Shown here: positions 30,001-33,000 of the stretch, in pieces
How positions within the stretch are numbered: position 1 is the first letter of the stretch
How the letters are laid out: each line of letters opens with the position of its first letter
Source: a virus
Lineage: Duplodnaviria > Heunggongvirae > Uroviricota > Caudoviricetes
Length of the DNA: 39,530 nt
Strand: one strand, 5' to 3'
IMG/VR virus record: IMGVR_UViG_2718218228_000004
Program-made: the position numbers

Positions 30001-33000
30001 ATGAAAACCTTTCGCTGGAAAGTGAAGCCGGATATGGAGGTGAACTCGCAGCCATCGGTGCGTGAAGTGCGTTTTGGTGACGGGTACTCACAGCGTATGG
30101 CGGCAGGGCTGAATGCTGACCTGAAAACATACCGTGTGACGCTTTCCGTGACCCGGGAGGAGGCCCGGCATCTGGAAGCGTTCCTGGCAGAGCACGGAGG
30201 CTGGAAGGCATTTTTGTGGAAGCCACCCTATGCATACCGGCAGATAAAGGTGACCTGTGCCGGGTGGTCTGCGCGGGTCGGGATGTTGCGCGTTGAGTTC
30301 AGCGCGGAGTTTAAGCAGGTGGTGAACTGATGCAGGATATTCACGAAGAAAGTCTGAACGAGTCGGTTAAATCAGAGCAGTCACCGCGGGTGGTACTCTG
30401 GGAAATCGACCTGACGGCGCAGGGCGGTGAGCGGTATTTTTTCTGCAATGAGCTGAATGAAAAAGGGGAGGCGGTTACCTGGCAGGGGCGGCAATATCAG
30501 GCATACCCGATTGACGGCAGTGGCTTTGAGATGAACGGGAAGGGCAGCAGTGCCAGACCGTCGCTGACGGTGTCGAATCTGTTTGGTCTGGTCACCGGGA
30601 TGGCGGAGGACCTGCAGAGCCTGGTGGGGGCCACGGTGGTCCGCCGCCGGGTGTATGCCCGTTTTCTGGATGCGGTGAATTTTGTGGCAGGCAATCCTGA
30701 GGCAGACCCTGAGCAGGAGCTGACGGACCGGTGGGTGGTGGAGCAGATGTCATCGCTGACGGCCATGACGGCCTCGTTTGTGCTGGCGACACCGACGGAG
30801 ACGGACGGGGCGCTGTTTCCCGGTCGCATCATGCTGGCGAACACCTGTATGTGGGATTACCGGGGCGATGAATGCGGGTATAACGGTCCGGCAGTGGCGG
30901 ATGAGTTCGACAACCCCACCACGGATATCCGGAAGGACAGATGCAGTAAATGCATGCGCGGGTGTGAGATGCGCGGCATGGTGGCTAATTTTGGCGGTTT
31001 CCTTTCCATCAATAAACTTTCGCAGTAAATCCTGTTTTATGACACAGACTGAATCAGCGATTCTGGTGCATGCCCGGCGGTGTGCGCCTGCGGAGTCGTG
31101 CGGCTTCGTGATAGGCACCCCGGAGGGCGAACGGTACCAGCCCTGCGTGAATATCTCCGCAGAGCCGGAGGCGTATTTTCGTATTGCGCCGGAAGACTGG
31201 CTGCAGGCAGAGATGCAGGGGGAGATTGTGGCACTGGTCCACAGTCATCCCGGTGGTCTGCCCTGGCTGAGCGAGGCCGACCGGCGGCTGCAGATAAAAA
31301 GTGCACTGTCCTGGTGGCTGGTCTGCCGGGGGGAAATTCATAAATTCCGCTGTGTGCCACATCTGACAGGACGGCTCTTTGAGCACGGGGTGACGGACTG
31401 TTACACGCTGTTCCGGGATGCATACCATCTGGCGGGAATTGATATGCCGGATTTTGAGCGTGAGGATGACTGGTGGCGCAATGGTCAGAACCTGTACCTG
31501 GACAATATGGAGGCGACTGGTTTTTACAGGATTTCCCTGCCTTCCGCACAGCCTGGCGATATCCTGCTGTGCTGCTTTGGCGCATCGGTGGCCAATCATG
31601 CCGCCATATACTGCGGCAACGGTGAACTGCTTCACCATCTGCCTGAACAACTGAGTAAACGGGAGAGGTATTCCGAAAAATGGCAACGACGAACGCATTC
31701 AGCCTGGCGTCACCGCCACTGGCACGTATCTGCCTTCACGGGGATTTACAACGATTTGGCCGCCGCCTCAGCCTGTATGTGAACACGGCAGCGGAAGCCA
31801 TCCGTGCCCTGTCGATGCAGATGCCGGGATTCCGCCGTCAGATGAACGAAGGCTGGTACCAGATACGTATTGCCGGTGATGACACGGCACCGGAGGCGGT
31901 GTACGCCCGTCTTCACGAACAGCTGGGTGAGGGAACGGTCATCCACATTGTGCCGCGACTGGCCGGGGCCGGAAAGGGTGGACTGCAGATTGTGCTGGGG
32001 GCGGCGGCCATCGTGGGGTCGTTCTTCACTGCCGGGGCATCAATGGCGTTATGGGGTTCAGCCCTGGCAGCCGGTGGTTTTTCTGCCACCACGATGCTGT
32101 TTTCACTGGGGGCCAGCATGATACTGGGTGGTGTGGCTCAGATGCTGGCCCCGAAGGCTAAAGTACCGGAGTACAAAAGCACGGATAACGGCAGACAGAA
32201 CACGTACTTTTCCTCGCTGGATAACATGATTGCACAGGGGAACCCGATGCCGGTGCCTTACGGTGAAATGCTGGTTGGCTCACGGCGAATCTCCCAGGAC
32301 ATCAGTACCCGTGATGAAGGCGGAGACGGGAAAGTGGTGGTTATCGGGCGGGGATGAAAATAAAAAAATCCCGCAGAGTTAGCGGAGCTGCGGGAGAGAA
32401 CGATGAAGATTAACGTTATGGAGTTATTTTTCAGGCATCAAAAAAGTAATGCAGCGTCATTATTGCGGCTACAGGCAATTGCCGGAAATGTGAAGAGTTT
32501 CAGAAATTTTATTCCGTCATGACACAGGCACCCTCCGGGGTGCCTGTTGTTTTCTGGCATAAACAGATTCAGACATCAGACAGGAGAGGGGGACAGAGTG
32601 GGTAAAGGGGGCGGCAAGGCGCACACGCCGGTTGAGGCAAAGGACAATCTTAAGTCCACGCAGATGATGAGCGTGATTGATGCGATTGGTGAAGGGCCGA
32701 TTGAAGGTCCGGTGAAGGGGCTGCAGAGTATCCTGGTGAACAAAACCCCGCTGACGGACACGGACGGTAATCCTGTGATACATGGTGTGACAGCGGTCTG
32801 GCGCGCCGGGGAGCAGGAGCAGACACCACCTGAAGGCTTTGAGTCCTCCGGAGCTGAAACCGCACTGGGCGTGGAAGTGACGAAGGCAAAGCCGGTGACG
32901 CGCACCATTACGTCCGCGAACATTGACCGCCTGCGGGTCACCTTCGGGGTGCAGTCACTGTTGGAGACCACCTCAAAGGGCGACCGTAATCACTCTTCTG

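Follow-up and report, generated by a model that had tools for sequence, protein, structure and literature searches.

A probable minus-strand Hfq-binding small RNA cassette and a late-strand hairpin at the I-J tail gene junction of a lambdoid prophage

The IMG/VR virus record IMGVR_UViG_2718218228_000004 (Duplodnaviria; Heunggongvirae; Uroviricota; Caudoviricetes) is a stretch of 39,530 nucleotides, here called the window, that matches the Shiga toxin (Stx1 and Stx2) lambdoid phages of enterohemorrhagic Escherichia coli (EHEC). The subject of this analysis is the spacer between its tail genes I and J, bounded by the TGA stop codon of I at 32355-32357 and the GTG start codon of J. An earlier note, made from the sequence alone, had described an AT-richer insertion of about 240 bp at this place, carrying a 39-amino-acid (39-aa) open reading frame (ORF) with a good Shine-Dalgarno (SD) sequence and a terminator-like hairpin just before the ribosome-binding site of J, and had proposed that it either attenuates J transcription or represents a tiny moron. 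The size and composition are borne out by measurement, the spacer being 241 nt long with a G+C content of 0.39 to 0.40 over 32350-32499, compared with 0.55 to 0.65 in the flanks. The statement that I and J are adjacent in lambda is not accurate; the two genes are separated there by 60 nt, so that the excess over lambda is in fact about 180 nt. The spacer is made up of one cassette (approximately 32362-32510) followed by a junction segment that holds a hairpin on the late strand and the ribosome-binding site of J (Table 1), and RefSeq annotation at the locus consists of the two tail genes, with no RNA gene. Overall, the feature that had been noticed is real but had been read on the wrong strand: the spacer most probably (we put the probability at roughly 0.88) represents a self-contained minus-strand small RNA (sRNA) cassette, encoding the Hfq-binding sRNA called EcOnc22, EcOnc23, and EcOnc24 in EHEC and PasB in enteropathogenic E. 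coli (EPEC), together with the junction hairpin. The element is in this sense already known, as a published and experimentally detected prophage sRNA accompanied by an ordinary hairpin.

The minus strand of the spacer carries an intrinsic terminator, detected both by a terminator scan and by RNA folding. The last U of its U7 tail, at 32362, marks the 3' end of the sRNA, which lies 5 nt past the I stop codon (32357), the direction of transcription being away from J. Judged from the 83-nt PasB, the Northern band of approximately 85 nt, and the Hfq cross-linking and analysis of cDNA (CRAC) peak considered below, the 5' end falls at approximately 32445-32447; it would fall at approximately 32452-32453 if transcription starts 6 to 7 nt after a conserved -10-like hexamer. 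A pattern scan of IMG/VR and of fetched phage and genome records gave a set of 131 loci, representing 63 distinct cassette sequences. Read in the RNA sense, the blocks that are invariant or nearly so among these 63 variants are a palindromic box, the -10-like hexamer, CTGCGTTA, a U-run, a segment running from AACUCC to GUUAAUCUUCAU, and the terminator; between these blocks the sequence is variable and contains indels. The 7-bp core of the terminator stem (CCCGCAG/CTGCGGG; 32370-32376 with 32388-32394) is the same in every variant, and a stem of this kind followed by U7 is typical of an Hfq-binding 3' module. The GUUAAUCUUCAU block is single-stranded or weakly paired in predicted folds and is our candidate seed. 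Its position agrees with the seed prediction made for PasB, which puts the seed directly upstream of the terminator (Zhu et al. 2026 preprint). A 5' hairpin of the sRNA, present in the fold of the window copy, was by eye not kept in the other aligned variants and was set aside as a conserved feature. Rfam searches, run with the whole window at the gathering threshold and with 32250-32700 at E <= 10, returned nothing credible in the spacer.

Table 1. Positions of features in and around the I-J spacer of the window
Feature	Position	Strand	Description or basis
I-J intergenic spacer	32358..32598		241 nt; AT-richer than flanks; identical to the spacers of Sakai Sp15, Sp14, and Sp11
sRNA gene with the EcOnc22/23/24 sequence, homolog of EPEC PasB	32362..32453	-	Probe match, PasB coordinates, alignment, and fold
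Intrinsic terminator of the sRNA	32362..32395	-	8-bp stem UCCCGCAG/CUGCGGGA (32395-32388 with 32376-32369), 11-nt loop, U7 (32368-32362)
Candidate seed GUUAAUCUUCAU	32403..32414	-	Of the single-stranded stretches of the sRNA, the most conserved; alignment of variants
-10-like hexamer, AATAAT in the window	32459..32464	-	TATAAT in most variants, including EPEC; inferred from alignment
Palindromic box TGTGAAGAGTTTCAGA (TGTGA-N6-TCAGA)	32489..32504	either	14 of 16 positions invariant
39-aa ORF	32403..32522	+	Judged a noncoding by-product of the antisense sRNA sequence
Late-strand hairpin	32524..32557	+	Stem-loop 32524-32547, 10 bp (7 G-C), loop TCCG, then TGTTTTCTGG; the J start follows approximately 40 nt downstream
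J ribosome-binding site GGAGAGGGGGA and GTG start (32599)	32585..32601	+	

The identity of the sRNA follows from comparison with the two pathogens in which it has been detected. The window spacer is 100% identical to those of VT1-Sakai, CP-1639, and Stx2a_WGPS6, and its whole length is shared without change with the I-J spacers of prophages Sp15, Sp14, and Sp11 of the O157:H7 strain Sakai. From these three prophages, Tree et al. (2014; PMC4104026, Table S2) reported the homologous Hfq-crosslinked sRNAs EcOnc22 (Sp15), EcOnc23 (Sp14), and EcOnc24 (Sp11), which are encoded on the chromosomal plus strand, antisense to the late genes, and which gave a Northern band of approximately 85 nt that was destabilized in an hfq deletion (PMC4104026). 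The Northern probe used in that work is a 33-mer, GGGAGAGAACGATGAAGATTAACTGATGAGTTA, starting GGGAGAGAACGATGAAGATTAAC (PMC4104026), and nucleotides 1 to 23 of it match the plus strand of the window at 32392-32414, exactly and at no other place; the RNA that it detects therefore lies on the minus strand and includes these positions. PasB of EPEC strain E2348/69 is an 83-nt RNA of the minus strand (NC_011601, 1466343-1466261) in prophage PP6 (Pearl Mizrahi et al. 2021; PMC8550237, Table S6), with log2 fold changes of -6.8 and -2.4 in an hfq deletion and 37 partners in EPEC as judged by sequencing of ligated, interacting RNAs (RIL-seq) (PMC8550237). Gene I of E2348/69 extends to 1466255, and J begins at 1466496; PasB, ending 6 nt past the I stop codon, therefore occupies the same place and strand as the window sRNA. 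In line with this, the PasB probe (AATCCCGCAGTGATCGCGGAGCT; PMC8550237) corresponds to the window terminator with the exception of the loop, and 59 of 83 aligned positions are identical between PasB and the window copy (71%; 78% without gaps). The papers on PasB (Pearl Mizrahi et al. 2021; Zhu et al. 2026) do not mention its equivalence with EcOnc22-24, and the link seems not to have been written down previously. Sequence identity, position, strand, anatomy, and conservation are thus contributed by our analysis, and expression, size, and Hfq dependence by the published work.

The conserved blocks on the far side of the sRNA from its terminator look like its promoter. Both pentamer half-sites of the palindromic box are invariant among the 63 variants while their neighbors vary, and the box and the -10-like hexamer are held at a fixed distance of 24 nt. 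On the sRNA strand (32504-32489), the box reads AUAAAAnTTCTGA-N6-TCACATTT, that is, TCTGA-N6-TCACA, which agrees with the CRP core consensus TGTGA-N6-TCACA at 9 of 10 positions, with one mismatch. Patterns resembling CRP sites were found three times in the window against an expectation of 1.5, a count that is not significant alone, and so the case for the box is made by its conservation. The same holds for the putative promoter as a whole, for which conservation is the argument; a sigma-70 promoter scan of 31500-33500 gave zero sites at its thresholds. Relative to the start that the hexamer predicts, the center of the box lies approximately 44.5 nt upstream; relative to the published PasB 5' end, it lies approximately 59.5 nt upstream in EPEC and approximately 50 nt upstream in the window. 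Classical CRP sites are centered at -41.5 in class II and at -61.5 or -71.5 in class I. The spacing of the candidate box is no clean fit to either class, and we regard control by CRP as a lead and not a result. PasB levels in overnight LB exceed those in glucose-containing Dulbecco's modified Eagle medium (DMEM), a circumstantial difference that agrees with CRP control without being specific to it.

Several observations weigh against the assignment of the spacer to an EcOnc22-24/PasB cassette. The -10-like hexamer predicts a primary transcript of 90 to 91 nt in the window, compared with the published 83 to 85 nt, suggesting either processing in the U-run or the use of another start. No covariation was found in the terminator stem of the sRNA among the 63 variants, a test that is uninformative because the stem itself was the pattern used to collect them. 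The window copy itself is known from its sequence, and the expression evidence belongs to the Sakai and EPEC copies, for which the EcOnc and Pas papers contain no validated target or phenotype. Finally, the coordinates tabulated by Tree et al. lie 128 nt away from the position of the sRNA in NC_002695.2, with the same offset in all three copies. When the coordinates of PMC4104026 Table S2 are used directly on Sakai NC_002695.2 (2902691-2902930), they point to the wrong half of the spacer. A placement of the sRNA over the region of the plus-strand hairpin, obtained in this way, was rejected as misleading, the probe sequence giving 32392-32414. We attribute the offset to an older version of the Sakai genome, the two versions of which presumably differ in length by 128 nt, and we take the probe sequence as decisive.

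The 39-aa ORF is present on the plus strand where the earlier note had seen it, and its attractive features can be traced to the sRNA on the other strand. Its good SD (GGGAGAG, 32392-32398) is the 3' half of the minus-strand terminator stem read on the opposite strand, and the plus-strand complement of GUUAAUCUUCAU reads ATG AAG ATT AAC, which accounts for the apparent start. Of the 63 distinct variants, 35 have ATG at the start position, 22 have ACG, and 6 have ACA. In those with ATG, the length of the ORF is 11, 12, 15, 16, 17, 21, 22, 30, 31, 32, 39, 41, or 54 aa (22 aa in the EPEC version), and the C termini are unrelated as a result of frame-shifting indels. Searches with both small ORFs of the spacer gave no match in Pfam and no family in PHROG, where the only match had an E value of 0.26. 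The 39-aa peptide has a grand average of hydropathy (GRAVY) of 0.03 and a value of 0.74 in its best 15-aa window, and it contains no membrane-spanning stretch. Being unconserved, nonhydrophobic, and without a family, the ORF is, we conclude from these comparisons, not a gene.

This conclusion bears on two other explanations of the spacer. One is a protein-coding moron, in which a 39-aa gene on the plus strand would be transcribed as far as the plus-strand hairpin, which in turn would attenuate J. The ORF does exist, its SD-like GGGAGAG lies 4 nt upstream of the ATG, the hairpin with its T-tail begins 2 nt past the stop codon, and two phage records place an annotated "hypothetical protein" there. 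These two annotated proteins are different ORFs, however, one of 50 aa overlapping the end of I and the other of 32 aa; the SD and ATG are accounted for by the antisense sRNA; and the hairpin occurs also in lambda and in propagated phages (see below). Together with the loss of the start codon in variants and the absence of a Pfam or PHROG family, this makes a protein-coding moron very improbable. What survives of the tiny moron envisaged in the earlier note is an autonomous cassette inserted in the late operon, the product of which is a minus-strand Hfq-binding sRNA and not the 39-aa peptide. The other explanation is a pair resembling a type I toxin-antitoxin system, with the plus-strand ORF as the toxin and the minus-strand sRNA as an antisense antitoxin covering its SD and start. 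The sRNA is indeed fully complementary to the SD, the start codon, and the first 14 or so codons of the ORF, a geometry like that of type I systems, and a sok-like RNA at 6663-6837 shows that such systems occur in this prophage. The removal of the ORF as a gene removes this pair as well: the start and frame of the would-be toxin are not conserved, its peptide is neither hydrophobic nor membrane spanning, the scanned region 31500-33500 has no promoter-like site on the plus strand, and the sRNA has many trans partners on Hfq, so that we give the toxin-antitoxin arrangement almost no credence.

The GC-rich stem with a U-rich tail that had been placed just before the J ribosome-binding site was recovered in our folds, with 10 pairs, and has the form of a terminator, a G+C-rich stem-loop passing directly into a U-rich tract. 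The 56-nt stretch around it folds with -27 kcal/mol (z = -5.7 relative to shuffles), and its tail, TGTTTTCTGG, has 6 T in 10 bases and is interrupted (TTGTTTTCT). Among 128 loci, 75 have a hairpin of this CAGGCACCC type, 41 have another late-strand hairpin with a T-run in the same place (AAACCCCGGTATC-TGCT-GATACCGGGGTTTCTCTTT), and in the remaining 12 further cassettes or other sequence come first. At the loci with the alternative hairpin (L017 and 40 others), the CAGGCACCC hairpin is replaced by a longer segment holding AAACCCCGGTATC-TGCT-GATACCGGGGTTTCTCTTT, and the recombination breakpoint falls directly after the box and its TTTTAT. The comparison of the I-J junction in related prophages that the earlier note had proposed as a check thus finds the hairpin conserved and the ORF start lost in 28 of the 63 variants. 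The CAGGCACCC-type hairpin occurs in 17 distinct versions, four of which share one compensatory change of C:G to U:A; one-sided changes preserve pairing, by way of G-U, better on the late strand, where 98.8% of cells are paired, than on the opposite strand, where 95.9% are. These figures are mild evidence that the hairpin may be selected as a late-strand RNA.

Lambda likewise has a plus-strand hairpin and T-run, AAACCGCC-TGCG-GGCGGTTT-TGTCATTT, in its 60-nt I-J spacer, where they immediately precede the J ribosome-binding site (lambda 15454-15499, equivalent to 455-500 of locus L019), and therefore the hairpin is a property of the junction and not of the inserted DNA. The same segment as in the window is found in complete deposited phages, namely, the PhiR12 series (E. 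coli C/K-12), BP-4795, 2851, 1720a-02, and Lys8385Vzw, some of which have a named laboratory host. The proposal that the hairpin attenuates J transcription is consequently unsupported as something special to this element, lambda having an equivalent. Intact phages that carry the segment and express J normally, with no termination at the hairpin, were to count against that proposal; phages that carry the segment do exist, and their J must be expressed. The presence of the hairpin in lambda and in propagated phages argues against strong termination of late transcription. Late transcription in lambdoid phages is antiterminated by Q and passes intrinsic terminators, making strong attenuation of J in lytic growth unlikely. 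The hairpin could instead stop unmodified polymerase in the lysogen or stabilize the upstream mRNA.

A different role for the hairpin would be as the 3' end of a second sRNA, transcribed on the late strand or derived from the 3' untranslated region of gene I, that forms an overlapping or convergent pair with the minus-strand sRNA. The hairpin and its T-rich tail are shaped like an Hfq-binding 3' module, the substitutions that tolerate G-U pairing favor folding on the late strand, and convergent sRNA pairs occur elsewhere in these prophages, such as those downstream of PR'. The table of Tree et al. (2014; PMC4104026), however, lists no late-strand Hfq peak for this spacer in Sp11, Sp14, or Sp15; no promoter-like site was found on the plus strand in the region scanned; the T-tail is interrupted; and in lambda the hairpin occurs without any cassette. 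A second, late-strand sRNA is therefore quite unlikely.

Taken together, these data suggest the following scheme for the EcOnc22-24/PasB cassette, of which we infer the trans-acting seed pairing, the promoter with its CRP control, and the role of the hairpin. An sRNA of approximately 83 to 91 nt would be transcribed opposite to the late operon from the box and the TATAAT-like hexamer, and its expression from the prophage would be independent of lytic growth. Hfq would hold the RNA through the terminator and U-tail, and the sRNA would most likely act in trans, its conserved segment pairing with host and prophage mRNAs. The plus-strand hairpin would stop only RNA polymerase that lacks the Q modification, for example, in stray read-through in a lysogen, and Q-antiterminated late transcription would pass it.

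The position of the cassette also raises the question of whether the sRNA acts mainly in cis, by pairing with the late polycistronic mRNA at I-J and altering its processing or stability, so that together with the hairpin it would set the level of J relative to the upstream tail genes. From its sequence, the sRNA is perfectly complementary to approximately 85 nt of the late transcript, beginning 5 nt past the I stop codon, and the I-J position is fixed in every variant, with up to four cassettes at that one site. The pairing region ends approximately 140 nt upstream of the J ribosome-binding site, however, making a direct effect on J translation unlikely; an insertion that is tolerated at this site, combined with recombination among related prophages, may account for the fixed position; and Hfq dependence and the 37 trans partners fit a trans-acting sRNA. 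We therefore consider a mainly cis-acting RNA improbable.

Of 5426 complete E. coli genomes, 802 (approximately 15%) carry the segment, which occupies a median of 3 places in each of them and at most 9; it also occurs in 147 phage records, nearly all of them Stx-converting or EHEC/EPEC phages. Among species-representative genomes, the conserved box and its flanks were found only in Escherichia albertii, apart from three very short contigs. In the unrelated assemblies assigned to Asaia, Parendozoicomonas, and Streptomyces (L020, L021, and L023), the segment lies on contigs of 460 to 3408 bp, which are probably contamination. In some prophages, two to four sRNA cassettes stand in tandem between I and J (L074, and also L064, L069, L026, and L040). 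In the L074 locus (IMGVR_UViG_2728369607_000007, 292-1230), terminators of the PasB type lie at 324, 543, and 996 and one of a second type (A-run, CTCCCG...CGGGAG) lies at 764, each followed by a TGTGAA..TCAGA box of its own (450, 671, 903, and 1120). The second terminator type may belong to a distinct, undescribed sRNA. It is tempting to speculate, although we regard this as doubtful, that the I-J junction of EHEC and EPEC lambdoid prophages is a dedicated, expandable slot for one to four antisense sRNA cassettes with at least two terminator types and one invariant CRP-like box, which would tie Hfq-dependent sRNAs, including EcOnc22/PasB, to a host carbon-source signal, possibly with an additional cis effect on the I-J late mRNA.

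Elsewhere in the window, J is split. The ORF that begins at GTG 32599 stops at 34469, and the remainder runs from 34472, in another frame, to 36076. The J of the window (32599-36076) thus looks like a frameshifted, probably defective tail-tip gene that is broken elsewhere than the J of Sakai Sp15. The ALIL pseudoknot, which serves IS3-family transposases as a frameshift signal, is present in two identical copies in inverted orientation, at 13831-13947 (-) and 16513-16629 (+), suggesting two insertion sequence copies in opposite orientation approximately 2.6 kb apart. In the early and late-regulatory part of the prophage are the sok-type antitoxin RNA (6663-6837 (+)) and three tRNA genes with an sRNA of the STnc100 type (9753-9999 (+) and 10773-10945 (+)). 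STnc100 was regarded as a relative of PasD by Zhu et al.

The spacer offers a lesson for annotation, in that reading a single strand makes an unannotated sRNA gene resemble a small ORF with a good SD and a stray hairpin. The locus is absent from Rfam 15 and from RefSeq RNA annotation although approximately 15% of complete E. coli genomes carry it, frequently as multiple copies. What our analysis adds to the published record are minor points: the link that ties together two separately named sRNAs, EcOnc22-24 of EHEC and PasB of EPEC; a conserved promoter architecture, in which the CRP-like box is a candidate element; and stacks of up to four cassettes.

Among known systems, EcOnc22/23/24 are the closest, the spacer sequence, strand, position, and probe match all being the same as in the window, with no difference at the sequence level; the different place at which J is broken in Sakai Sp15 indicates that the window is another copy or comes from another strain. 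PasB shares with the window sRNA the I-J locus, the antisense strand, the terminator stem and U7, a GUUAAUCUUCAU-type segment, the promoter box, and the -10-like hexamer. It differs in its 5' third (GCCCGAGUAACAAAAACAAC in EPEC and GAUGCCUGAAAAAUAAC in the window), and its range of targets may therefore differ. The lambda hairpin resembles that of the window in being G+C-rich, on the late strand, followed by a T-run, and directly upstream of the J ribosome-binding site; it differs in sequence and in strength (8 G-C/A-T pairs and -16.5 kcal/mol over a 46-nt stretch, compared with 10 pairs and -27 kcal/mol over 56 nt), and no sRNA cassette stands beside it. Identity with the anti-sRNAs AgvB and AsxR was rejected, as these sit downstream of PR' and not between I and J, and identity with HnrS (EcOnc10-12) was rejected as well, its copies being in Sp9, Sp10, and Sp12 at other coordinates. 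AgvB, AsxR, HnrS, PasA, PasC, PasD, and STnc100 thus differ from the window sRNA in sequence and site; like it, they are short Hfq-binding prophage sRNAs with their own promoter and intrinsic terminator, noncoding "morons" of prophage late regions that are often present in multiple copies.

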